Shown here: piece after piece, positions 14,757 to 59,616 of the stretch
Numbering within the stretch: the first letter of the stretch is position 1
Layout of the letters: each line of letters begins with the position of its first letter
Assembly (NCBI GenBank): GCA_964533825.1
Contig: CAZHMU010000005.1
Coordinates: forward strand, 31,599-95,598
Direction: 5' to 3'
DNA length: 64,000 bases
DNA from: an uncultured Oscillospiraceae bacterium
GTDB taxonomy: Bacteria > Bacillota > Clostridia > Christensenellales > CAG-314
The notes under the pieces: model-generated
Databases searched by the model: none
Told to the model about the DNA's origin: nothing
What the model saw: only the letters and a program-made list of their open reading frames with translations
Made by a program: the position numbers and the translations under genes

Positions 14757-15362
14757 ATGGACTACATTTTGGATAGCACCGTCAAGGTGGGACGTAACGT
14801 CACAATCGAGCCGTTTGCCGTTGTAAAGGGCAATACGGTTTTGGGAGATGGATGTGTTGTGGGCAGTTTCAGTTATCTTGTGGATGCCACAGTTGGGCAA
14901 AACACAGTAATCAAGAGTTCGCGTATTGTAGCAAGCACAGTTGGCGCAAATTGTACAGTTGGCCCCAATGCGCATTTGCGCGACAACTCAGTAGTGGGAG
15001 ATGGTTGCAGGGTAGGCAACTTTGTGGAAATCAAAAACAGCACTTTGGAAAGTGGCGTCAAAGCCAGCCACCTTGCCTATGTTGGCGATGCGTTCGTTGG
15101 CGCGGACACAAACATTGGCTGTGGTGTAATTTTTGTCAACTACGATGGCAAACACAAGCACCGTACCACCGTTGGCAAAAACTGTTTTATTGGGTGCAAC
15201 ACCAACCTTGTTGCTCCTGTGACGGTTGGCGACAACTGCTTTGTTGCCTGTGGCACAACTGTGGATAAGGATATCCCCAACGGCACCTTTGGCATTGGCA
15301 GAAGCTACCTTGTTTTGAAGGAAGGTCGCGCCATCCACTACCTAAAAAAGCCCCCAGAGTGA
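14757..15362 (+). CDS. left-handed beta-helix acetyltransferase equal to the C-terminal half of GlmU only
   Basis: Hexapeptide repeats and the GlmU C-terminal signature (VNYDGKHKHRTTVGKNCFIGCNTNLVAPVTVG) are present. No uridyltransferase domain exists; only ~200 nt of non-coding DNA lies upstream. Confidence 0.75.
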   Translation: MDYILDSTVKVGRNVTIEPFAVVKGNTVLGDGCVVGSFSYLVDATVGQNTVIKSSRIVASTVGANCTVGPNAHLRDNSVVGDGCRVGNFVEIKNSTLESGVKASHLAYVGDAFVGADTNIGCGVIFVNYDGKHKHRTTVGKNCFIGCNTNLVAPVTVGDNCFVACGTTVDKDIPNGTFGIGRSYLVLKEGRAIHYLKKPPE

Positions 15363-15375
15363 GCAAACATTAAAA

Positions 15376-15400
15376 AAGGAGAGCCGCGGCTCTCCTTTTG
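15376..15400. terminator. bidirectional terminator at left edge of AT-rich islet
   Basis: AAGGAGAGCCG / CGGCTCTCCTT perfect palindrome flanked by A-run and T-run. Confidence 0.75.
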
Positions 15401-15403
15401 GTA

Positions 15404-16414
15404 TTAGTTGGATTTTGAAAATGCTTTTTCGCAAAGCTGTTCAATATATTCACGCTTAATAAGAGCATCTCTCCATTCTTGTGGGATAGATTTGTAGCCA
15501 TAAGCTGCACCAGCTAATGTTCCTGCTATTGCTGCAACTGTATCGGTATCGTCACCCAAATTTACCGCTTTCAAGACGCAATCTTTGTAGTTGTTGGTTG
15601 AGAGTAAACACCAAATGGCAGCTTCCAATGTATGCACAACGTAGCCATCACTAACAATGTCGTCTTCCGTTGCTTTGGGTAAAGTTTCCAAACATTGTGG
15701 AACTGTTTCGGGAATGTTATCCACATCCGCCACTTGATGTACCAATTTACCAAAGTGAACTAATTCCATATTGCCAGCATAGTATTTGCGTGCGTTATCT
15801 AATCCTTTGCATACAGTAAATTTAACATCGGCGTTAACATCATTTGATAATAACTCCCACAGCACGAACGCAAAGAATCCACAAGCCATCTTTGAGCGCG
15901 GATGAGCATGTGTCAAAGCTGACGCAAGCTCTATTATTTCGATTTTTGTTCTTGTATTGGTATCCAAAGCGAATGTGTACAACACAAATGGATGAATTCT
16001 CATTAGCGAGCCATTACCATTATCCATTTCACGAGATAGCCCACATTCCTGCCAAGACATCCGATTTTTGACATATCTCTCAATCGCCATACTGCAAGTG
16101 TTGCCAACGTCAAACATTTCGCCAGTTGGGGTGTATTCGTCTTGGTAGTACCACTTTGTAAAGTTGACCATTACTTTGTCAAAATTAAGTTTGTTGCCAT
16201 CAAAGGCATCCAATGCGCAAAGTGCCATACTGGTGTCGTCCGACCAAGAACCTCTGGGCATAGGATATGTTCCATAACCTATCATTGTTGTAACAGGTGT
16301 TTCTCGTAGCTCGCCCCTACTCATAAATTCAACTGGTACACCCAACGCATCTGCAACAGCGTGACCAATTACTACGGCTTTAACTTTGTTGATAAAGTCT
16401 TTTTTGTTAATCAT
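15404..16414 (-). CDS. ADP-ribosylglycohydrolase (DraG/ARH family)
   Basis: GHAVADALGVPVEF, WSDDTSMALC, GNGSLMRIHP and LGDDTDTVAAIAGTLAGAAYG are the family metal-site motifs. I prefer ATG 16414 (AAGGAG upstream); the track TTG at 16444 is an alternative start. Confidence 0.85.
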   Translation of the reverse strand: MINKKDFINKVKAVVIGHAVADALGVPVEFMSRGELRETPVTTMIGYGTYPMPRGSWSDDTSMALCALDAFDGNKLNFDKVMVNFTKWYYQDEYTPTGEMFDVGNTCSMAIERYVKNRMSWQECGLSREMDNGNGSLMRIHPFVLYTFALDTNTRTKIEIIELASALTHAHPRSKMACGFFAFVLWELLSNDVNADVKFTVCKGLDNARKYYAGNMELVHFGKLVHQVADVDNIPETVPQCLETLPKATEDDIVSDGYVVHTLEAAIWCLLSTNNYKDCVLKAVNLGDDTDTVAAIAGTLAGAAYGYKSIPQEWRDALIKREYIEQLCEKAFSKSN

Positions 16415-16436
16415 TTGATTGAATTTCTCCTTGTAT

Positions 16437-16625
16437 TTAGTCAAAACAGATTGCTACTTCCAATATTAGACAAACAATTAAAAGTAATATTAACAAGGGG
16501 TTCACCCCAGGTTTGTTTTCGCTGTTAGAGTTATTAGAGTCATCGTCACACTGTGACGAACTAATTACATTGTTGTAAAAGGCATCATCTTGCCAATCGT
16601 GTTTACCATCACCGTTCCAATCCAT
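16437..16625 (-). CDS. 62-aa tail-anchored peptide with N-terminal DxNxDGxxDxxD calcium-loop motif
   Basis: RBS AAAGGGGA is 6 nt upstream. MDWNGDGKHDWQDD is followed by an acidic Ser/Asn linker and a C-terminal TM (PLLILLLIVCLILEVAICF). It sits between two co-oriented genes with 17-nt and ~22-nt gaps. Confidence 0.55.
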   Translation of the reverse strand: MDWNGDGKHDWQDDAFYNNVISSSQCDDDSNNSNSENKPGVNPLLILLLIVCLILEVAICFD

Positions 16626-16642
16626 AGTTTTTCCCCTTTGTT

Positions 16643-17026
16643 TTAAGATAACTTGTGTTTGTTCAATGCTATCAAGCTTTCAATAAATTGATTGCGACAT
16701 TTTTCACTCAACTGTTCGTAACCAAATTCGTAAATTCTCACACGTATTTCAGTGCGGCTCTTGTTGCCAAGGTTGCGGATTCTCAACAATGTATCTTCTT
16801 GTATAGCATCAATGAGCTGCTCGACAGTTTGTATGCCTGCTCGCATCAAACAGTTTGTGCTTCGTACCGAAAGGTCGAGTTCTGTTATGCTGGTTTTGCA
16901 AGCGGATTCCGAAAAAGGCAATTGTATTTTTGTGCCAATGCCAAAATACTTTTTGATTGTAGCTATCAAGCCATAATTTTCAATAGTGGTGTAAAGTTCT
17001 TCAACAGTAATTTGATTAATAGACAT
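16643..17026 (-). CDS. stand-alone RNA polymerase alpha C-terminal-domain (alpha-CTD) protein
   Basis: ATG 17026 is 5 nt after GGAGG. ELDLSVRSTNCLMRAGIQTVEQLIDAIQEDTLLRIRNLGNKSRTEI aligns to the RpoA CTD helix-hairpin-helix (E. coli LELTVRSANCLKAEAI...NLGKKSLTEI). There is no alpha NTD. Confidence 0.75.
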   Translation of the reverse strand: MSINQITVEELYTTIENYGLIATIKKYFGIGTKIQLPFSESACKTSITELDLSVRSTNCLMRAGIQTVEQLIDAIQEDTLLRIRNLGNKSRTEIRVRIYEFGYEQLSEKCRNQFIESLIALNKHKLS

Positions 17027-17061
17027 TTCAACCTCCAATAAGTGTTTTTAGATAGGTCTAT

Positions 17062-17072
17062 ATTATACCACA
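17062..17072 (-). promoter_or_regulatory. extended -10 promoter (TGTGGTATAAT) for the alpha-CTD operon
   Basis: TGnTATAAT lies about 35 nt upstream of ATG 17026 on the minus strand; the -35 is weak. Confidence 0.5.
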
Positions 17073-17274
17073 AACATAAAACTCGTTTTTTTTGGTATTT
17101 TGGGCAAGCATAGACCCAAAATTCCAATTTTTTAGCAAAAATAAACCCAAAAAAGTAGTTTTCAGGATGTGGTATAATATTTGATTGGATATCAAACTTC
17201 CAAAAGATAAAAATATTGTACATAAAAATTATACTATAATTAACATAGTCATATCTACTTGGACAAAGGCTGTA

Positions 17275-17303
17275 TTGACTTTTATGTCATCATTTGATAT
17301 AAT
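17275..17303 (+). promoter_or_regulatory. sigma-A promoter for the LRR gene
   Basis: TTGACT, 17 nt, TATAAT, about 40 nt upstream of ATG 17343. Confidence 0.6.
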
Positions 17304-17342
17304 GTACACGATTTTGTCGACAGAATAATTGGAGGCACTACT

Positions 17343-19094
17343 ATGAAACAAAGTATTGGGCTTAAATATAATATTTTAAAAGACGGCACTTCCTGCGAAG
17401 TTTCAGGAATAGGTACTTGTACGGATATTGATATTATTATTCCATCAACATATAATGGGAAACAGGTTACTGGTATAGCCGGCGGTGCTTTTTATGATTG
17501 TAGCGATATTACCAATATAAAAATTCAAAGTGGTGTGATTAAAATAGGCGCCAGTGCATTTCGCGGATGCTCAAAGTTAAAAGGTATTACAATACCATAT
17601 GGAGTAAATAGTATAAGTAATCTTACGTTTGCCGATTGTTCAAGTCTAAGAATAATTTTGATTCCATCGAGTGTAGAACAGGTATGCTCTTACGCCTTTG
17701 ATAATTGTAAAGGCATCAAGTTTGTTTACTATCAAGGCTCAGAGGAGCAATGGAAAAGAATATCCATAGGAGAAGGCAATGATGCTTTAATAAATGCACC
17801 CATAAAGTATATCATCGAAGATAGTATTGAAAAAGGCAATTATTCCGTAGGATTAAAGTACACTCTTTCTAAGGATAGAACTTATTATGAAGTGTCTGGA
17901 ATAGGGGAATGCTCTGACACTTATGTTGTCATACCATCAAGATATAACAAAATACCTATAGTCAAAATAGGGAGATCTGCGTTCTATGGTTGTAAAAATA
18001 TTAAATATGTCGAGATTTCAGAAGGTATCATTGATATTGAGGATTCCGCATTTCGCGATTGTACAAATTTAATAAGTGTTGCACTTCCAAATAGTGTAAC
18101 AAGTATTGGTAATGAGACTTTTCGTGGCTGCAAAGAGTTAAATAGCATCACAATACCATATAGCGTTAAAAAAATCGGGCATTCGGTATTTTCTGGATGC
18201 AGTAGTCTGTATAGCATCAAAATTCCATCTGGCGTGACAAATATTGGCGGTTATATGTTTTTTAATTGCAATAGCCTCAATAATATCAGTATTCCATCGA
18301 CTGTTTTAAGTATAGGATCAAATGCGTTTATGTATTGTTCAAGCTTAAAAAATGTATACTATGATGGAACTAAAAAACAATGGAATAAAATTACAATGTA
18401 CTGGGGTAATTATGCGCTCGTAAAAGTAGGCATCAAATTTAAGTGTGAGAATGCTGTCGATCTTGATGGTTTGGGAACCGATATTGCCGATGCAGATGTT
18501 TGTGATGAATGTAACATTGAAGATGATAATATTCGTGCATTGAAAAAAGAAATCGAAAAATTAAAACAGCCAATTCCAGTAGAAGAGTATATTGACCCTA
18601 TTATAGAAAAACCCATAACTATTACTAATATGAAACTGCAAGATTATTATCTTGAAATTGCATTTTCTCAAAGGATTAATTCTGATTGGAGCCAGCTTTT
18701 CCTCAGTCTGTACGGAAATATTTTGGCTGAATATGAAAAACAGACCCAGACTTTAGATGACAAATCTCCCGAAAAGAAGGTGCTTTCATACGTAATCCTC
18801 ATATTCCAAGAGCCAGTGATAAATGAGCAGGGTATAAGAGTTCAAATTAAGCATAACGATATAAATATTCCTGAAATCAAGCAAATTATTAGCCAATTTA
18901 TAAAAGTGATACAAAGTGTATTAAGAAAAATCCCTGATGAATATATTGCATTAAAAAAAGCTCCATTTTTGACAGAGCGTGAAGAAAAAATAAAAGCAAT
19001 TGAGGCACAAATCCAACAGATACAAACAATCAAGAGTATCAATGATATGTTGGGAGAGATGCTATCCACTTCGCTAGATAATACAGATAACTAA
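17343..19094 (+). CDS. signal-less BspA-type leucine-rich-repeat protein with unknown acidic/coiled-coil C-terminal domain
   Basis: RBS GGAGG. Two tandem LRR_5-type modules (IPS.YN....I...AF..C..L..I.IP..V..I) are followed by a ~200-aa C-terminus with heptad-like EEKIKAIEAQIQQIQTIKSINDML. No signal peptide, lipobox or TM was seen. Confidence 0.8.
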   Translation: MKQSIGLKYNILKDGTSCEVSGIGTCTDIDIIIPSTYNGKQVTGIAGGAFYDCSDITNIKIQSGVIKIGASAFRGCSKLKGITIPYGVNSISNLTFADCSSLRIILIPSSVEQVCSYAFDNCKGIKFVYYQGSEEQWKRISIGEGNDALINAPIKYIIEDSIEKGNYSVGLKYTLSKDRTYYEVSGIGECSDTYVVIPSRYNKIPIVKIGRSAFYGCKNIKYVEISEGIIDIEDSAFRDCTNLISVALPNSVTSIGNETFRGCKELNSITIPYSVKKIGHSVFSGCSSLYSIKIPSGVTNIGGYMFFNCNSLNNISIPSTVLSIGSNAFMYCSSLKNVYYDGTKKQWNKITMYWGNYALVKVGIKFKCENAVDLDGLGTDIADADVCDECNIEDDNIRALKKEIEKLKQPIPVEEYIDPIIEKPITITNMKLQDYYLEIAFSQRINSDWSQLFLSLYGNILAEYEKQTQTLDDKSPEKKVLSYVILIFQEPVINEQGIRVQIKHNDINIPEIKQIISQFIKVIQSVLRKIPDEYIALKKAPFLTEREEKIKAIEAQIQQIQTIKSINDMLGEMLSTSLDNTDN

Positions 19095-19140
19095 TCCGAT
19101 TATCTCTCAAATTACAGACCCCTATCCCACCCCATTTCCC

Positions 19141-19169
19141 TTGCCTATTCACGCAAAAAATGGTAAAAT
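19141..19169 (+). promoter_or_regulatory. promoter for yfcE-like gene
   Basis: TTGCCT, 17 nt, TGgTAAAAT (extended -10). Confidence 0.5.
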
Positions 19170-19200
19170 GGGGGCATCTTAAAAAAGGAATTATCTCACT

Positions 19201-19743
19201 ATGAAATTGATGATAGCAAGCGATATCCACGGCTCGGCACATTTTTGCAAGCAACTTGTTGAGCGTTTTCACGCCGAAAACCCTACAAAACTGCTAATTT
19301 TGGGGGACGTCTTGTATCACGGCCCACGCAATCCGTTGCCAACTGACTACAACCCACCAAAGGTTGCGGAAATGTTGAACGAAATTTGCGACCGCATCAT
19401 TTGGGTCAAGGGCAACTGTGATGCTGATGTTGACCAAGTGATGCTCAATTTCCCAGTGGTGGAAAACGCCCTGCTGTTTGTTGACGGACGCACAATTTTG
19501 GCATCCCACGGACACGTTCACTGCAAGGATACCCCACCAGCACTTTCCAAGGGCGACATCCTTGTCAACGGACACTTCCACGTGCCCACTGCGGAAAGCT
19601 TTGGCAACGATAACTTGTACGTCAACTGCGGATCCGTTTCCATCCCCAAACAAAACAGCCCACACAGTTACCTTGTTCTGGAAGATGGCACCTTTACTTG
19701 GAAAGACTTGCAAGGCAACACTTTCAAAACACACAAAATGTAG
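19201..19743 (+). CDS. yfcE: YfcE/MJ0936-family metallophosphoesterase
   Basis: MKLMIASDIHGS, LILGDVLYHGPRN, GNCD, SHGH and NGHFH are the calcineurin-like motifs in YfcE order. Confidence 0.85.
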   Translation: MKLMIASDIHGSAHFCKQLVERFHAENPTKLLILGDVLYHGPRNPLPTDYNPPKVAEMLNEICDRIIWVKGNCDADVDQVMLNFPVVENALLFVDGRTILASHGHVHCKDTPPALSKGDILVNGHFHVPTAESFGNDNLYVNCGSVSIPKQNSPHSYLVLEDGTFTWKDLQGNTFKTHKM

Positions 19744-19947: not shown

Positions 19948-19984
19948 AAAGACGCTTTGGTTTACCCAAAGCGTCTTTTTGTTT
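19948..19984. terminator. bidirectional terminator (yfcE / protease)
   Basis: AAAGACGCTTTGG / CCAAAGCGTCTTT stem with flanking A-run and T-run. Confidence 0.75.
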
Positions 19985-20066
19985 TAGTTAGGTATTTAGT
20001 TGTTTAGGTACATCAATGCAAATTGTTTGATGTATCAACAATGTTGCAAAATTATCTTTGCATCAA

Positions 20067-22937
20067 CTATTCTCCATCTGCAAATGTGATGGTAATTGTC
20101 AAGCTATCCGCTGTTACGCTGTCAAAGCTGATGTCAAAGTTGACAAGCTTGCCATCGTTGCGAGTGTAGTTTGGTTGAGCTTGGCTAAACACATCCCCTG
20201 TTTGCCACAGGTCATCAGCAGCCGCACAACTAAAGTAGTCACCATAGATGTCTTGCACTTGGTCGCTTTCAAAGTTGGAGTCGCCGTCCGCTTCTACAAG
20301 CTTCAATAGTGGTGTGGCAGATGTTGAGTTGTTGTTGTCCGTAAAGGAGTAGTACTCGTCCCCGTAAGGGTTGGCAATGGTTGCGTCAACGTGATAGATA
20401 CGTGCGCCAAAGCTTGCGCCATCGTAGAGATAACTGTCATCAAGGCCTGCGTGCAATGCGTTGAGCCCTGTTGCCGAGTACAAATCTATGATTAGATACT
20501 CGCTAAAGTAAGTTCCGTCGTAGTCCAACAAAACAATGACAAACTGTCCACTGCTTTCCAAACTGCTGATGGTTATTGTTTGTGTGCCAGTCACGACAGC
20601 CGTAGGCTTAACCCAGCCAAGCAACAACTTGGAGTAAGCATTGTGGTCACCCACGGTGTAGTCCATCATATCCGCGCCGCCCAAACCTTTGTCACTGCCT
20701 TGGTTTGGATTGTAGTCGTAGTAGTCGTCCAGCCCCAACATATGGCCTGTTTCGTGTATGTATGTTGTCGCGTTGAGTTTCAATCCAGCAATGGGACTAA
20801 ATTCGTTGGGGTCGCTTGTTTCAATGTCCTCGTACATAAAGTCCACGCTTGCAAACAAGTAGGTGTAGGCATCCAAGTCGCCGTAGGACAGGTCGTCAGT
20901 GTATCCAGTAACGTATGCCCAGTAGTAGTCGCCATCGTAGTCGATAGGCGCACTGTAAATGATGTACACGCCATCAATAACGCCGTTTTGGTCAACGTCG
21001 TACTTGGTAAAGTCAAAGCCGCGTGCATACAGTTGGTCAAGTGCCAGCTTCACAATGTCTCCGCCGTAGTCACTTATGCCGTTTTTGTCAGTTTCAAAAC
21101 TGCCGTATGTAGAGCTCAACGTAACCTTGTCTGCAACGTCAAATGTCATGTTGAGTTTGCCGTAGGATGATGTTTGGTAGTAGCTTGCAACACTTTCCCA
21201 ACCGGTGTTTGCCTTGTTGTTGAACACGTTGGCAATGTCGGTAAGTTCTTGCGTGGTAAACTTGTCGTTGGAAAACTCCACAGGTACAACCAAAACGTTG
21301 TAGTTGCCTTGAGATGGCAATCCAGTGGACGCAAGGTATCCTTGTTGAGTGTCGTAGTTAGTGATTGCATCGTACAAGATGTCATCGTAGTCTTGGTGGT
21401 TGGCACTGTCATACGCTTGCTCTGGCATCACTTCTTTGGATGGTGTGGACGAGTCACCTGCACCAGTTGCCGAAATGGTGATGGTCTTGAAGTAGATTGA
21501 ACCAAGACCGGATGCGTTTGTTTTTGCAGGTACAACTTCAATCACAACTTTGCCACTAACGGCAGTGGTGGATGTAAATGTCAAAATATTGTTGTTGATA
21601 TTTTGGAATACAACCTCGCTTTGTCCGTCACAAGTAAATACAGTTGAGCCTACCTTTACAGTAACAGTGATGTCCGTTGTTTTGTTTGCGGAAATATCAA
21701 TAGTGATGGATGAAACATTGTCCACGTTTGTTGTGGATGTCAACGTAATGCCACCCAGTTGCTTTTGGAATTGAACACCGCGGTTGGCATCCCAACCGTC
21801 AACTTTTCTGCTTGCAACAAAGCTAACTTCGCCTGTGCTGTTCAAAGTTGTTGCTCCAGTGGATGTCTCAAATGTTGTTGTCAGTTCTTGGTTATCTCCA
21901 CTTGGTGGTGTAACATCTTCACCAGTGTTGTCGCCACCAGTATTATCATCAGTTGTATCGCCAACAACGTTCAGGTTGCTTACGTCCACTGTAACTGTGT
22001 CGTAGTTGGATAGTTGCACTGTGTAAGTAAACACCGCATCGTAGTAGTCGTCTTGTTGTGTGGCAACAATCTTGGTAACTTTGCCATTTGCGATGTACAA
22101 ATCAACTGCGGTGTAAGTGCAACTTTCGTATTCGCCAAACAAATCATTGCCTGCGTCACTTGGGCTGGTAGCACTGTAGTGGTCGTCACTTTGTACCCAA
22201 TCGTAGTTGCCAAGCAAAGCCAAATCTACCCAATCAAGGTAGCCGTAGTATATTTCGTAAAACTCGTCATAATTGTCGTTGTAGGATAGCTTTGTGTAGG
22301 TGCCGTCCTCGTTGTCGTAGTAGTAGAGTATGTCAGTATCGGTGTACACAACGTAGTCCACAAAGTTATTTTGCTCATCTGTGTAGTAAAAGTTGTAGCC
22401 GTCATACAAGTAGATGAGCGTGTAAGCATATACGTTGGCAATGGATGCTTTGTCTGCGTCAACACTAAACTTGAGTTCAAAGTTCCATTGTTCGTAGTCG
22501 ATGTAGTTGGCAAACACGTCACTCAAATCGGCATGTGTTGTATCTCCACTTGGTGGTGTAACAGTTCCACCTTGGTCATTGTTGTCGCTTCCGCCTTGAT
22601 TTGTATTGTCGTCACCGCCTTGATTGTTGTCCTCCGCTTGAACAATAACGATGATGGACTTACTTGCTCCTTCGTAACTGCAAGTAACAATAAACGCACC
22701 CGCCTTTGTAAAATCGGCATTGGGAGCATCAATCATCTCGTCAGTGACAAGCACACCTTCACCTTTATCATTGGTAATGGTAAAGTAATCTTTCAGGTCC
22801 ACAACTTGGCCAACAGTAACGGTGTAACTGTTTTCTTCACTGGATACAGTGTATGTTGATGGAGTAATGATGTCGCACGCACAAAAAACACAACTTAGGC
22901 ACACAATCATCAACAAAACTATGGCTAATTTCCTCAT
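20067..22937 (-). CDS. large secreted lipoprotein with C-terminal HExxH zinc metallopeptidase domain (M6/InhA-like motif context)
   Basis: The true start is Met36 of the track ORF (AAAGGAGAAG RBS). Signal/lipobox MRKLAIVLLMIVCLSCVFCAC. An Ig-like N-domain is followed by two Asn/Gly/Asp linkers each ending VTPPSGD, then HETGHMLGLDDYYDY. Confidence 0.8.
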   Translation of the reverse strand: MRKLAIVLLMIVCLSCVFCACDIITPSTYTVSSEENSYTVTVGQVVDLKDYFTITNDKGEGVLVTDEMIDAPNADFTKAGAFIVTCSYEGASKSIIVIVQAEDNNQGGDDNTNQGGSDNNDQGGTVTPPSGDTTHADLSDVFANYIDYEQWNFELKFSVDADKASIANVYAYTLIYLYDGYNFYYTDEQNNFVDYVVYTDTDILYYYDNEDGTYTKLSYNDNYDEFYEIYYGYLDWVDLALLGNYDWVQSDDHYSATSPSDAGNDLFGEYESCTYTAVDLYIANGKVTKIVATQQDDYYDAVFTYTVQLSNYDTVTVDVSNLNVVGDTTDDNTGGDNTGEDVTPPSGDNQELTTTFETSTGATTLNSTGEVSFVASRKVDGWDANRGVQFQKQLGGITLTSTTNVDNVSSITIDISANKTTDITVTVKVGSTVFTCDGQSEVVFQNINNNILTFTSTTAVSGKVVIEVVPAKTNASGLGSIYFKTITISATGAGDSSTPSKEVMPEQAYDSANHQDYDDILYDAITNYDTQQGYLASTGLPSQGNYNVLVVPVEFSNDKFTTQELTDIANVFNNKANTGWESVASYYQTSSYGKLNMTFDVADKVTLSSTYGSFETDKNGISDYGGDIVKLALDQLYARGFDFTKYDVDQNGVIDGVYIIYSAPIDYDGDYYWAYVTGYTDDLSYGDLDAYTYLFASVDFMYEDIETSDPNEFSPIAGLKLNATTYIHETGHMLGLDDYYDYNPNQGSDKGLGGADMMDYTVGDHNAYSKLLLGWVKPTAVVTGTQTITISSLESSGQFVIVLLDYDGTYFSEYLIIDLYSATGLNALHAGLDDSYLYDGASFGARIYHVDATIANPYGDEYYSFTDNNNSTSATPLLKLVEADGDSNFESDQVQDIYGDYFSCAAADDLWQTGDVFSQAQPNYTRNDGKLVNFDISFDSVTADSLTITITFADGE

Positions 22938-22971: not shown

Positions 22972-23256
22972 GGCTCTATCACAAACTCTGGTTGCCCTTT
23001 GACGGCAAAACGACTGTGCAATCTCCCACATTGCTCGGTCACAGACTTTGCAAGTATGCTCCGCGTCGCAACTAACGCTACATTGTTCGCAATGATGCAA
23101 AAAAAGCATCATTGCTCACTTTTAGCGTTGTTGCTCCTTTCCCCACAAACCAAGATTTGATTTTGTGGGGACCCCATTAGTTGCAATGTAGTTCTTGCTT
23201 GCGATTTATCCACCAAACCGCCTAACGGCCAATCAACCATTTTCTGCGACATATCC
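22972..23256 (+). mobile_element. ISL3-like MITE, long form (L1)
   Basis: The 5' end GGCTCTATCACAAACTCTGGTTGC and the 3' end ...CAATCAACCATTTTCTGCGACATATCC form imperfect terminal inverted repeats. It aligns end to end with the copy at 59293. Internal hairpins include GCAATGATGC/GCATCATTGC and CCCCACAAA/TTTGTGGGG. Confidence 0.75.
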
Positions 23257-23574: not shown

Positions 23575-23591
23575 ACTTTCACAACACAATA

Positions 23592-23780
23592 GTTTGCAGG
23601 TTGCGTGAAACAATCGCATTTGTGGGGGAACAATGTGCAAATCATTGACAGTCCCGCTACGGTAAGGCCTTGCCAAGTCCGAATGCCCAACTGCAACAAT
23701 TTTTAAGGATGGTCTTCGATGCAAAGATACAACTCACTTTTGCCACGCAAAAATGGTTGTATTTGCGGTGGCATTTTTTC
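23592..23780 (+). promoter_or_regulatory. cobalamin (B12) riboswitch with terminator expression platform
   Basis: The core GGGGAAcaaTGTGcAAATCattgACAGTCCCGCTACGGTAAgg matches the conserved GGGAA..GGTG.AAATCC...CAG.CCCGC.AC.GTAA segment. A B12-box-like AGTCCGAATGCCC and a closing GTTGC/GCAAC helix follow, then the terminator GCCACGCAAA/TTTGCGGTGGC plus T6. Confidence 0.65.
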
Positions 23781-50949: not shown

Positions 50950-52077
50950 ATGTTAGAAGTAAGACAAGTTAAGAAAAAAAATGAACAACGTGATTTTTTG
51001 AATTTTCCACTTAATTTATATAAAGATAATCCTTATTTTGTGCCACCGCTTTATATGGATGAAAAGAAAATATTCAAAAAAGATTATCTATATTTAGATC
51101 AAGCAGAAGCTATCTATTATAATGCATATTTAGATGGGAAAATTGTTGGTAGAATATCCGGGATTATCCAAAAAGCATCAAATCTTAAAAACAATGAAAA
51201 AAGAGTTAGATTCACTAGATTTGATTGTATAAATAATCAAGAGGTGGCCAATTTGTTGTTTTCTACAGTTGAAAAATGGGCTAAAGATAAAGGCATGGAT
51301 ACGATTGTAGGCCCACTTGGGTTTTCAGATTTAGAACGTGAAGGGTTACTTATAGAAGGATTTGATCAGTTATCTACATTTGAAGAACAATATAATTTTC
51401 CGTATTATCAAGAGCTTATCGAAAACTATGGATTTACTAAAGAAGTAGATTGGGTGGAAAGAAAATTATATGCACCAAAGGTAAAAGATGAACGGTTGGA
51501 AAAATTAAGCGGATTAGTGTTAAAAAGATATAAATTGAAGTTCGGATTAGCTAAAAATACGAATGAATTTATTAAAAAATATGCTGATAAATTTTTTGAT
51601 ATTATCGATAAGACATATGTTGATATATATGGTTCCGTTCCTTTTACCCCTGCCACTCGAAAACTTATGATATCAAACTTTAAATTGATTGTTGATGTAA
51701 AGCATGTGGTAGTGATTGTAGATGAAAATGACAATGTAGTGTGTTTTGGAATATGTTTTCCTTCGTTAGCTAATGCTATTCAAAAAAGTCGTGGACATTT
51801 AACACCGGCAGCAATAGTTAGGTTGATTAAAGCAATTAAAAAACCTAAAGTATTAGATTTAGGCTTAATAGGAGTGATTCCTGAATATCAAATGAAAGGT
51901 GTTAGTTCAGCCATCATTTCTGAAGTAATGAAAATGCTAACTGAAGGTGGCATTGAATATTGTGAAACAAATTTGAATTTAGAAACAAATGATGGAATAC
52001 AAAACCAGTGGAAATCATTTGATAGTGTATTACACAAAAGAAGAAGGTGTTTTGTTAAACAAATAGGAGAAAAATAA
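50950..52077 (+). CDS. two-lobed GNAT-fold acyltransferase-like protein, function unknown
   Basis: 375-aa AT-rich gene. The N-terminus MLEVRQVKKKNEQRDFLNFPLNLYKDNPYFVPPL and the later IPEYQMKGV acetyl-CoA-loop-like motif resemble an uncharacterised GNAT family. Confidence 0.5.
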   Translation: MLEVRQVKKKNEQRDFLNFPLNLYKDNPYFVPPLYMDEKKIFKKDYLYLDQAEAIYYNAYLDGKIVGRISGIIQKASNLKNNEKRVRFTRFDCINNQEVANLLFSTVEKWAKDKGMDTIVGPLGFSDLEREGLLIEGFDQLSTFEEQYNFPYYQELIENYGFTKEVDWVERKLYAPKVKDERLEKLSGLVLKRYKLKFGLAKNTNEFIKKYADKFFDIIDKTYVDIYGSVPFTPATRKLMISNFKLIVDVKHVVVIVDENDNVVCFGICFPSLANAIQKSRGHLTPAAIVRLIKAIKKPKVLDLGLIGVIPEYQMKGVSSAIISEVMKMLTEGGIEYCETNLNLETNDGIQNQWKSFDSVLHKRRRCFVKQIGEK

Positions 52078-52769: not shown

Positions 52770-53258
52770 ATGATTTATCGCAAAACAAAGGCGGAAGATT
52801 TTCCCGCCGTCATACAACTCAAAAACCAAGTCAAGCAACGCGTCATTGCGCAAAACCTTGCAATTTGGCAGGATGGCTATCCACAAGACCAACTCATTGC
52901 CGACGACATTGCCCACGGCTTTGGCCGAGTTGTGCAAATTGATGATCAAATTGTCGCCTATGCAACATTTCATTCCGCCGACTACGAGTATCCCAAGGAT
53001 ACCTTTCGCAAAAACAACGTGATGTCCTTTGGCAGAGTTATGGTTGCAGATGGCTTTGTTGGCAAAGGTATTGCAAGTTTTTTGGTACAAAGTATGATTG
53101 ACGAAGCGCGCAACCTTGGCTACGATGGCGTTGGCATTTTGGTGGACGATTTCAACGAGCGTGCCACTCGCCTTTACTACCGCAAAGGTTTTGTCAAGGA
53201 AGGTCACGCCACTTTTCCTTGGGCCGATTTGGATATATTGGCATTGTATTTTAACTAA
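52770..53258 (+). CDS. GNAT-family N-acetyltransferase
   Basis: MIYRKTKAEDFPAV... with the acetyl-CoA loop RVMVADGFVGKGIASFL and ...YRKGF. Confidence 0.8.
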   Translation: MIYRKTKAEDFPAVIQLKNQVKQRVIAQNLAIWQDGYPQDQLIADDIAHGFGRVVQIDDQIVAYATFHSADYEYPKDTFRKNNVMSFGRVMVADGFVGKGIASFLVQSMIDEARNLGYDGVGILVDDFNERATRLYYRKGFVKEGHATFPWADLDILALYFN

Positions 53259-53430
53259 GGCTCTGTCAAAAACTCTGGTTGCTTTTTTACGGCAAAACGG
53301 CTACGTAATTTCCCAGATTTTACTCGGTCACTGCCCCTACGTAACCTCACTTGCAACAATGTGGTTATTGCCCGCTTTTTATCCGTCAAACCGCCTAATG
53401 GTTAATCAACCATTTCTTTGTGGAATATCC
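53259..53430 (+). mobile_element. ISL3-like MITE with perfect 8-bp target-site duplication (L3)
   Basis: TTAACTAA (53251-53258) and TTAACTAA (53431-53438) flank the element exactly. Its ends are GGCTCTGTCAAAAACTCTGGTTGC and ...TTAATCAACCATTTCTTTGTGGAATATCC. Confidence 0.85.
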
Positions 53431-57635: not shown

Positions 57636-57712
57636 GGCTTTGTCACAAACTCTGGTTACTTTTTGACGGCAAAACGCCTAATGGCTAATCAACTATTTCT
57701 TGTAACAGAACC
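57636..57712 (+). mobile_element. ISL3-like MITE, minimal 77-bp form (L5)
   Basis: GGCTTTGTCACAAACTCTGGTTACTTTTTGACGGCAAAACG is joined directly to CCTAATGGCTAATCAACTATTTCTTGTAACAGAACC. Flanks are ATTTTTTT / AATTTTTT (7 of 8 match). Confidence 0.75.
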
Positions 57713-59283: not shown

Positions 59284-59292
59284 TAGGCAAAA

Positions 59293-59616
59293 TGCTCTGT
59301 CGCAAACTCTGGTTGCTTTTTGACAGCAAAACGACTGCGCAATCATCTGTGTTTTGTTCTGTCACAGACCCTACAGGTATGATCCGCGTCGCAACTAACG
59401 CAATATTGTTCGCAATGATATAGTAACATCATTGCTTGCTTTTAGCGTTGTTGCTCGTCCTACAAATCAGGGGTTTGATTTGCGGGGGTCCATCAGTTAC
59501 AATGTGGTTCTTGCTTGCGTTTTACTCGTCAAACCACAGCCTCTCACGCTGGGAGAGGTGGCAGTCGCAAGACTGACGGAGAGGGCGGCCAATCAACCAT
59601 TTCTTGTGACAAAGTC
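59293..59616 (+). mobile_element. ISL3-like MITE, long form carrying a nested T-variant hairpin (L4)
   Basis: Collinear with L1 (22972..23256), including the GCAACTAACGC...GCGTTGTTGC long hairpin. The ~48-nt insert at 59539-59586 replaces GCCTAAC of the 3' module. Confidence 0.75.
59539..59586 (+). repeat. T-variant nested hairpin inside MITE L4
   Basis: GCCTCTCACGCTGGGAGAGGTGGCAGTCGCAAGACTGACGGAGAGGGC; inverse orientation relative to the copy at 29503. Confidence 0.75.

Follow-up and report, generated by a model that had tools for sequence, protein, structure and literature searches.

ADP-ribosylation of arginine 265 in the alpha subunit of RNA polymerase (RNAP) by phage T4 is decades-old knowledge. 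To our knowledge, no host counter-measure to this modification has been demonstrated, and the ARG-centric systems (ARG, ADP-ribosylglycohydrolase), which come closest, are computational predictions only. The T4 enzymes Alt and ModA both ADP-ribosylate R265 of RNAP alpha (PMC8120803). The ARG-centric systems consist of an ARG without an ADP-ribosyltransferase (ART), accompanied by a phosphatase, vWA/SseB chaperones, Macro domains and nuclease effectors; their modules turn over rapidly, and they are predicted to undo viral ADP-ribosylation (Iyer et al. 2022, Viruses 14:1977, PMC9503650). A tightly coupled phosphatase occurs in about 55% of these systems and a Nudix- or WYL-HTH-type negative regulator in about 42% (PMC9503650). 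In this study, we describe a locus in which an arginine-type ADP-ribosylhydrolase (ARH) and a faithful stand-alone copy of the targeted domain, the alpha C-terminal domain (alpha-CTD), are encoded in one operon, providing a small, clonable three-gene candidate counter-measure. The operon belongs to an islet at positions 15372 to 19139 of a 64-kb window, by which we mean the whole stretch of DNA analysed (64,000 nt of contig CAZHMU010000005.1 from an uncultured Oscillospiraceae bacterium). Comparisons among alleles make it very probable that this is a strain-variable accessory islet, exchanged by recombination, of a Fimimonas-like gut Christensenellales bacterium. The fuller account given below, in which the islet, its anatomy and a function in de-ADP-ribosylation are taken together, seems to us the best explanation, with a little better than an even chance of being right as a whole.

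The islet lies between two core genes that are present in all strains and in the sister species. On its left is a gene for a stand-alone hexapeptide acetyltransferase of the GlmU C-terminal type (14757 to 15362, plus strand; 201 amino acids; Pfam Hexapep and the NCBIfam model for the C-terminal half of GlmU), and on its right is yfcE, encoding a YfcE-family phosphodiesterase (19201 to 19743, plus strand; NCBIfam PRK09453, 207 bits, above the cut-off). An exact-protein look-up with a 207-amino-acid version of the hexapeptide open reading frame (ORF) gave no match because the true start lies six codons downstream. The exact YfcE protein was found in ten metagenome contigs from one sequencing project (L001 to L010), and these formed our within-species sample. 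Five of the ten are occupied (L001, L002, L004, L005 and L008) and four are empty (L003, L006, L007 and L009); the contig of the tenth, L010, stops inside the leucine-rich repeat (LRR) gene of the islet and shows only the right junction and an LRR 3′ end of the L001 type. Two of the occupied contigs, L004 and L008, do not differ from the window at all (100% identity). The four genes are also found in L002 and L005, and in L001 the ARH operon is accompanied by another LRR gene, which is shorter.

In the empty alleles, the glmU-like gene is joined to yfcE. They match the window through position 15371 and again from 19140, with flanks that are 98–100% identical between empty and occupied alleles, and the 3768 nt of the islet are swapped for a spacer of 162 nt that is nearly identical in all four samples; the empty site holds unrelated DNA and not a clean target site. 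Within this filler (L003, 9778 to 9939), CATATTTGTAGCAATA occurs twice, at a distance of about 100 nt. The preliminary description, made from the letters of this DNA alone, had placed the islet between a terminator at 15376–15400 and position 19141, and had named the interval from the glmU-like gene to yfcE as the place where relatives should be compared. Both boundary elements were found, although the ends had to be refined to 15372 and 19139 using the empty alleles, and the four-gene block turned out to be a presence/absence polymorphism that is not universally conserved. The left element, a bidirectional intrinsic terminator at 15374 to 15399 (11-bp stem with T-runs on both sides), belongs to the islet and terminates the hexapeptide gene from one side and the ARH operon from the other. 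The right element, the yfcE promoter (19141 to 19169, plus strand; TTGCCT, 17 nt, TG-TAAAAT), is core DNA directly beside the islet and is kept in the empty alleles and in the sister species.

Three sister species (L011 to L013, belonging to three GTDB species, with YfcE proteins 79–83% identical) lack the islet: yfcE directly follows SpoIIE and the hexapeptide gene, and the spacers measure no more than about 90–260 nt. They are represented by a roe-deer Clostridia metagenome-assembled genome (MAG), an "Oscillospiraceae" MAG and a Candidatus Fimimonas species. According to its original description, Fimimonas is GTDB genus CAG-1435 of the Christensenellales, family CAG-314, with genomes of about 1.4 Mb and 46% GC; going by these named relatives, the host of the islet apparently has a very small genome. 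The NCBI placement of Candidatus Fimimonas (taxid 2840648) in the Myxococcaceae was rejected as a probable database misplacement, because the original description says otherwise and because SpoIIE is encoded in the window and in these genomes. A further, related lineage (L019 to L021; hexapeptide protein 89% and YfcE 75% identical) has the four-gene block too, in the identical position. At either end its junction is homologous to that of the window, the terminator hairpin is retained with compensatory substitutions (L019), and the islet is AT-rich there as well (34–41% GC against 48% in its flanks).

The occupied alleles are far more diverged than their surroundings. Synonymous divergence (dS) of SpoIIE within the species is 0.011–0.018, whereas that of the ARH gene, relative to the window, is 0.21 for L005, 0.39 for L002 and 1.15 for L001, and that of the alpha-CTD gene of L001 is 1.0. 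Taken over the islet, the alleles are 20–100 times more diverged than the flanks (dS 0.2–1.15 against about 0.01). The LRR genes of different alleles can barely be aligned (49–58% identical), and dS in the hexapeptide gene climbs to 0.06–0.115 between occupied alleles. The ratio of nonsynonymous to synonymous divergence (dN/dS) is 0.05–0.31 in all islet comparisons (0.05–0.14 for ARH, 0.17 for the peptide gene), and no ORF is broken in any allele for which genes were called. With purifying selection in all comparisons and unbroken ORFs, the islet genes are evidently functional.

The differences between alleles are clustered. Between L002 and the window, those in the ARH gene are confined to nucleotides 50–250 and 650–1000, the peptide gene is identical and the alpha-CTD gene differs at two positions; between L005 and the window, they are confined to ARH nucleotides 650–1000. 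The L005 tract runs over the left junction into the hexapeptide gene (14593 to ~15764) after 2.3 kb of perfect identity. Sharing across lineages was observed too: the L001 alpha-CTD allele is 87% identical to that of L019, in the other lineage, and only 70% identical to that of the window; the C-terminal domain of the L001 LRR protein is about 92% identical to that of L019 (an estimate by eye); and the L019 ARH is 86% identical to an ARH at an unrelated locus, L022. From the clustered mismatches, the junction-crossing tract and the cross-lineage sharing, we infer allele replacement and gene conversion by way of the flanks. These patterns indicate that the islet is an old, recombining, multi-allelic locus rather than one recent insertion, and it is likely that the alleles were swapped by homologous recombination through the conserved flanks. 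Such exchange would explain why integrase, att site and tRNA are missing: no recombinase domain was detected in the islet by Pfam searches of the window proteins, no tRNA gene was found across the 64-kb window, and no terminal direct repeats are present at 15372 and 19139. The same three absences had already been noticed in the preliminary description, which left the acquisition mechanism unclear; homologous recombination through the flanks now appears to explain it best. The alleles would draw on a gene pool of 31–38% GC that belongs to conjugative elements in gut Firmicutes. The islet is a clean natural case of turnover without mobility genes: a single metagenomic population contains the empty allele next to several deep ones, together with mosaic tracts and alleles shared across lineages.

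Six-frame ORFs and Pfam assignments gave the gene content that had been proposed, namely four genes in two divergent units: on the minus strand a gene with an RNA_pol_A_CTD domain, an unannotated ORF of 62 amino acids and a gene with an ADP_ribosyl_GH domain, and on the plus strand a gene with LRR_5 repeats. With starts set by their ribosome-binding sites (RBS), the order in the minus-strand operon is the alpha-CTD-like gene, 17 nt, the peptide gene, 22 nt and the ARH gene, followed by the bidirectional terminator. A search for Rfam elements at the islet returned none.

The last gene of the operon (15404 to 16414, minus strand; RBS and ATG at 16414) encodes an ARH of the ARH/DraG/Tri1 family with 336 amino acids. 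It matches PF03747 over profile positions 2–287 of 287 (239.8 bits, cut-off 26.2; 6e-71). Its best NCBIfam models are the arginine-specific Tri1 (219 bits, equivalog cut-off 490) and DraG TIGR02662 (143 bits, cut-off 337), both below the cut-offs, and the match to the Tri1 model begins at model position 52, the N-terminal toxin-occluding extension being absent. The closest structures in the PDB are Listeria Lmo0067 (8za7, 8e-63) and Tri1 (6dre, 1e-51), with DraG (2woc) at 1e-25. The motifs GDAxG..EF, WxDDTS, FDxGNT and GDDxDxVAA align with those of the solved relatives, the window protein having VEF, WSDDTS, FDVGNT and GDDTDTVAA where Tri1 has LEF, WTDDTS, FDIGNT and GDDADSVAA; the metal-binding and catalytic acidic residues, the E-D-D of DraG and Tri1 (PMC8120803) and the C-terminal DxDT motif, are accordingly present. 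The protein is an ADP-ribosylglycohydrolase domain with intact catalytic motifs, and its activity is predicted on that ground. The subfamily is large, with thousands of proteins of >55% identity. Homologs in phage collections are only 30–34% identical and occur in jumbo and Streptomyces phages; matches in PLSDB plasmids have 44% identity or less, and none of them comes with the cassette.

The first gene (16643 to 17026, minus strand; start corrected by its RBS) encodes a protein of 127 amino acids that resembles the C-terminal domain of RNAP alpha. It matches PF03118 with 67.7 bits (cut-off 23.8; 7e-19) and is 48–51% identical to the alpha-CTD of B. subtilis. An AlphaFold2 (AF2) model (pLDDT 87.6) superimposes on 1z3e_B in Foldseek with a core rmsd of 1.4 Å over 64 residues, and has two additional N-terminal helices and one additional C-terminal helix relative to the B. 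subtilis domain. Only the C-terminal domain of RpoA is matched (residues 44–109 of the 131-amino-acid ORF against model positions 250–314); all rpoA equivalog scores are far below the cut-off and the N-terminal dimerisation and assembly domain is absent, so the protein is not RpoA. The residues that form the "265 determinant", the UP-element DNA-binding surface of the alpha-CTD, are given here in E. coli numbering. Across the family alignment, the equivalents of R265, N268, N294, S299 and E302 show no variation, that of G296 is retained except in one member (P0003), and that of K298 varies. The motifs SVRSxN and RNLG..S..E are conserved, and SVR[ST]xN is present in every more distant copy. The DNA-binding surface thus appears largely intact and, as far as its residues tell, competent for DNA binding. 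Full-length relatives are rare, with 7 clusters among 5.8 billion proteins in a first search. The sole PADLOC match is to the alpha-CTD-like segment of BREX PglW (E 2e-6, 24 bits). Candidate relatives in phage collections proved to be rpoA-like fragments, and those in PLSDB to be chromosomal rpoA in mis-typed records; neither was retained.

The second gene (16437 to 16625, minus strand) encodes a membrane peptide of 62 amino acids with a putative calcium loop. It consists of an N-terminal MDWNGDGKHDWQDDAFYNNV, which by eye follows the pattern of a DxNxDG calcium-binding loop, a linker rich in Ser, Asn and Asp, and a C-terminal transmembrane helix; Ca2+ binding is putative. The peptide is conserved in every related cassette, and its family comprises about 46 representatives at 50% clustering (1.84 billion proteins), although no match was found in Pfam, NCBIfam, PHROGs or PADLOC. 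Upstream of the operon, the 304-nt divergent spacer contains a mirrored inverted repeat of 32 nt (17060–17091 and 17149–17180), each arm of which carries the extended −10 element TGTGGTATAAT. The left arm is likely to be the promoter of the alpha-CTD/peptide/ARH operon.

The operon recurs outside this site. Wherever full-length relatives of the alpha-CTD-like protein were found with their context, the peptide and ARH genes came next, and this was the case at two further unrelated loci. One of these (L018) adjoins a protein with a weak, sub-threshold TnsA/restriction-endonuclease-like match; the other (L016/17) includes an AsnC regulator, a weak SseB-like protein (L016, E 0.0012) and a PHP/CpsB phosphatase, and adjoins YpsA and PcfJ. 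In the contexts sampled for the ARH subfamily, a small ORF lies directly upstream in four of five. At L022–L029 this ORF encodes the same peptide as in the window: at L022/23 it forms a peptide-PHP-ARH set opposite a homologous LRR_5 gene in divergent orientation, with a type III restriction system and an NYN protein as neighbours; at L024/25 the peptide and ARH occur with Macro, vWA and PHP; and at L026–29 with Macro. At L045/46 the ORF before ARH is an unrelated 85-amino-acid protein with an N-terminal hydrophobic segment; this locus, which adjoins PcfJ/PcfK, also includes an alpha-CTD::DUF4391 fusion, Macro, vWA, NYN and a "212-aa domain". Across these loci and those of the metagenome scan described next, vWA is present in L024, L035, L038 and L045, Macro in L024, L026 and L045, and NYN in L022 and L045, while a PHP/CpsB-type phosphatase adjoins ARH in L016, L022 and L024 and CpsB occurs also in L033, L035 and L041.

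A metagenome scan with the back-translated peptide motif yielded 13 loci. An alpha-CTD-like gene lies no more than two genes upstream of the peptide gene in 9 of them, often in the order AsnC/alpha-CTD/peptide, and some carry a Tn916-type integrase, Xis, ImmA/XRE and a UmuC-like gene. The GC content of the cassette loci is 31–44%, mostly 31–38%, matching the composition of the islet. The cassette recurs in AT-rich DNA of conjugative elements, whose markers (PcfJ/PcfK, integrase with Xis, ImmA/XRE) adjoin it, and its homologs, as judged from these neighbourhoods, reside in mobile elements. A phage origin found no support: IMG/VR viral contigs gave no match with ARH, alpha-CTD or the peptide motif, and the matches in phage collections are remote. 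No ART gene was seen in the islet or in any related-cassette neighbourhood examined. The MDWNGDGKHDW... peptide should be a handy marker with which to trace further cassettes of this family, as yet undescribed, in gut Firmicutes and on their conjugative elements. Several variants were also recorded in passing. A complete 318-amino-acid RpoA paralog stands between the alpha-CTD-like and peptide genes in L032 (373–1329, peptide gene on the plus strand), on a contig of 32.7% GC and not in the usual rpoA context. An uncharacterised "207/212-aa domain" follows the peptide or ARH in L035, L037, L040 and L045, often followed in turn by a 101-amino-acid acidic protein with a second calcium-loop-like motif, FNHDGK, and in L038 (3742–4479) this domain is fused to an alpha-CTD. 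In L036 (666–9672), the peptide gene is downstream of a cluster, recognised by eye, of an Hsp70-like ATPase, an AAA+ protein (CbbX-like) and a Sel1-repeat protein, and a GRS-repeat protein follows.

What might the operon do? In the account that we favour, it would be a protective de-ADP-ribosylation module, a Firmicutes variant of the ARG-centric systems, and the foreign ARTs that it counters would be phage enzymes or interbacterial toxins. The ARH would strip ADP-ribose from modified arginines. The alpha-CTD-like protein would be a target mimic, sentinel or adapter, or equally the DNA-binding regulator of the module; the former roles are suggested because R265 of RNAP alpha is the target of phage ARTs and an arginine-type hydrolase is encoded alongside. 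That the operon acts by reversing foreign ADP-ribosylation seems to us to have at best an even chance. It is doubtful, by comparison, that the alpha-CTD-like protein serves specifically as a mimic of the RNAP target. We are equally hesitant about a bolder proposal, that the alpha-CTD mimics the RNAP surface under attack by phage or toxin ARTs and, with ARH and peptide, makes up a previously unrecognised three-part system which senses, absorbs and erases ADP-ribosylation of the transcription machinery; conjugative elements of gut Firmicutes would carry this system, and strains would trade it as a recombining chromosomal islet. Our literature searches on alpha-CTD with ARH, on Lmo0067 and on ARH among leading-region anti-defence genes gave nothing specific and no description of an alpha-CTD/peptide/ARH cassette, and the alpha-CTD and peptide partners of ARH appear to be undescribed.

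Several observations weigh against this account, either as to the islet or as to its function. The 162-nt filler has no clear origin; the shared yfcE promoter aside, it could not be matched convincingly with the islet or with the spacers of the sister species, and recombination is inferred from sequence patterns rather than observed. The substrate specificity of the ARH is not readable from its sequence, and a homolog of 59% identity stands solitary in an ordinary chromosomal context (L043). For the alpha-CTD-like protein, a role as a mere transcription factor is conceivable. It has T and M at the positions equivalent to the Spx-contact residues Y263 and K267 of B. subtilis. Most of the metagenome loci come from one assembly project (JAEIGA01...) and are not fully independent. 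PADLOC-DB 2.0 recognised no known defence system, with no match for ARH, peptide or LRR protein, and, compared with the ARG-centric systems, the window islet is devoid of phosphatase, chaperone, extra ADP-ribose-processing domains, nuclease effectors and a Nudix or WYL regulator.

The alternative that survives best, although we think it rather unlikely, is that the operon is stranded anti-defence cargo of a conjugative element, which shielded the DNA of an integrative and conjugative element or plasmid, or the transconjugant, from ADP-ribosylating host defences (DarT- or CmdT-type toxins), and is now a chromosomal remnant kept by recombination. The neighbours of the related cassettes fit this well, since they include PcfJ/PcfK, YpsA, a Tn916-type integrase with Xis, ImmA/XRE and a UmuC-like gene in DNA of 31–38% GC, and so does the co-occurrence of Macro and ARH. 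However, the islet itself has no transfer genes, in two lineages it has lasted at a chromosomal site while under purifying selection, and the leading-region survey consulted makes no mention of ADP-ribose enzymes.

It is also conceivable, but unlikely, that the operon is an endogenous switch, in which the alpha-CTD-like protein is a small DNA-binding factor or anti-activator whose arginine is reversibly ADP-ribosylated by a distant ART, with ARH as the eraser, in the manner of DraT/DraG. The tight and conserved gene order, the largely intact "265 determinant", the AsnC-type regulator that is often directly upstream and the mirrored repeat in the promoter region, which could be an operator, would all be expected of such a switch. 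Yet none of the neighbourhoods examined holds an ART, the peptide-ARH pair is also found without alpha-CTD, and presence/absence polymorphism together with extreme allelic divergence is atypical of housekeeping regulation. The protective de-ADP-ribosylation module remains the account that we favour.

The gene divergent from the operon (17343 to 19094, plus strand) encodes a BspA-type LRR_5 protein of 583 amino acids (Pfam LRR_5, 206 bits, 2e-61), made up of two LRR modules and an orphan C-terminal domain of 210 residues with alpha/beta and coiled-coil structure. A promoter-like site precedes it (17275 to 17303, plus strand; TTGACT, 17 nt, TG-TATAAT; 11 of 12 matches). No other islet gene is as AT-rich or as variable; its alleles encode 583 (window), 384 (L001) and 344 amino acids (L019), and the C-terminal domain of L001 and L019 differs from that of the window. 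No sequence homolog of the window's C-terminal domain was found, a weak negative in that its own cluster was not returned either, and a single-sequence AF2 model (pLDDT 76) gave no significant fold match in the PDB. Could this variable protein, as an adhesin, surface antigen or intracellular sensor under diversifying selection, be the selected cargo, and the ARH operon an unrelated passenger? Its AT-richness, its divergence (49–58% identity) and its swapped C-terminal domains speak for that, and BspA-like proteins are known adhesins (a partial match to NCBIfam HupY/LrrG was obtained). We consider it very improbable, however. No N-terminal hydrophobic signal or anchor is visible by eye in the translation, the ARH operon, too, has several alleles and evolves under purifying selection, and the homologous LRR_5 gene that is divergently paired with peptide-PHP-ARH at the unrelated locus L022/23 argues for a functional link over hitch-hiking.

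The composition of the islet agrees with its accessory status. With the remainder of the 64-kb window as the only background, its GC content is 35.9% against 44.0% (43.5% for the whole window), which lies below all 1055 non-overlapping segments of the same size (z = −4.4; mean 43.7%, sd 1.8, minimum 37.1%). Its composition-normalised tetranucleotide deviation, 0.316, is the highest of 107 segments, the other 106 having a mean of 0.163 and a maximum of 0.236. In 300-nt steps, GC drops at ~15.4 kb and recovers at ~19.15 kb; in 1-kb steps, a trough of 32–33% at 17–19 kb is preceded by 39% at 16–17 kb, and the 304-nt divergent spacer has 28–30%. GC at third codon positions (GC3) is 0.272 in the LRR gene (z −3.3), 0.386 in the alpha-CTD gene and 0.375 in the ARH gene (z −1.8), compared with 0.495 ± 0.068 in the background and 0.53 and 0.58 in the two flanking genes. 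The AT-richness, which had first been judged by eye, is thus genuine, and GC, tetranucleotide and codon usage all depart significantly from the background, but it is graded, coming mostly from the LRR gene and the divergent spacer. The long A/T run cited in the preliminary description sits at 17368–17390; in the ARH gene the deviation is mild. That the low GC stems merely from a mutational bias of the region or from native genes being weakly expressed, to which the mild deviation of ARH might point, is hardly credible in view of the empty alleles within the species, the three sister species without the islet, the homologs in conjugative-element DNA of matching low GC and the outlying tetranucleotide signature.

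A few other features of the window were noted. Downstream of yfcE, the spacer that separates its terminator from the 3′ end of the M6-protease-domain gene, which is convergent with it (19984–20068), has a different, longer sequence in L001, L002, L003, L006 and L010 and is a second variable spot beside the islet. The most AT-rich gene of the window (50950–52077, plus strand; 29.7% GC, GC3 0.197, z −4.4) encodes a GNAT-like acetyltransferase of 375 amino acids and is a second candidate for horizontal acquisition. An intergenic repeat of ~60–130 nt, with copies ~80–87% identical and no Rfam match, is dispersed at 23027–23110, 53256–53331, 57636–57679 and 59291–59419, upstream of several genes including that of the M6 metalloprotease. 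The sole Rfam match in the window at the gathering threshold is a cobalamin riboswitch (RF00174, 40.2 bits) at 23581–23708, plus strand.

Among described proteins, the ARH can be set beside Tri1, which gives immunity to the type VI secretion toxin Tre1, and BAH, which gives immunity to the Bacteroides prophage toxin Bxa. They have in common the DraG-like fold, the motifs and the erasure of arginine ADP-ribosylation as a means of protection, which for the window ARH is predicted. Unlike Tri1, the window ARH has no adjacent ART toxin gene and no N-terminal extension, and it stays far below the Tri1 cut-off (219 against 490 bits). DraT/DraG, which act on nitrogenase reductase, involve the same hydrolase family, but the ARH falls short of the DraG cut-off (143 against 337 bits), and neither DraT nor a nitrogenase context is present. 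With the alpha-CTD of RNAP, the alpha-CTD-like protein shares the fold and most of the DNA-binding residues, including the arginine that is modified. In contrast to RNAP alpha, it is free-standing, without assembly domain or linker, has extra helices at its ends, deviates at positions where the B. subtilis domain touches activators, and is encoded in an accessory islet and not in the ribosomal-protein/rpoA operon.

The ARG-centric systems (PMC9503650), themselves only predictions, share with the islet an ARG without linked ART or sirtuin, rapid evolution, and gene turnover between close genomes. Phosphatase, vWA, SseB-like, Macro and nuclease-fold proteins are carried by relatives of the cassette and not by the window islet, which has a minimal version of the ARG-type cassettes of gut Firmicutes. 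The published systems are hosted by actinobacteria, planctomycetes and proteobacteria and have mostly rhodanese-type phosphatases, whereas the host here is a Firmicute and the phosphatases of the relatives are of the PHP/CpsB type. AsnC-type or alpha-CTD-like regulators are found upstream here, and the alpha-CTD, the calcium-loop peptide and LRR_5 are not part of the published description.

As a locus, the islet compares best with flexible genomic islets and replacement hot-spots. It differs from typical examples in being very small (3.8 kb, four genes) and in its cargo, which is not the usual set of glycosylation or surface-polysaccharide genes. A fixed site, empty and alternative alleles, the lack of integrase and att site, tracts that run into the flanks and a deviant composition are features in common, and the islet is a clear member of this known class, that of flexible islets exchanged by homologous recombination.

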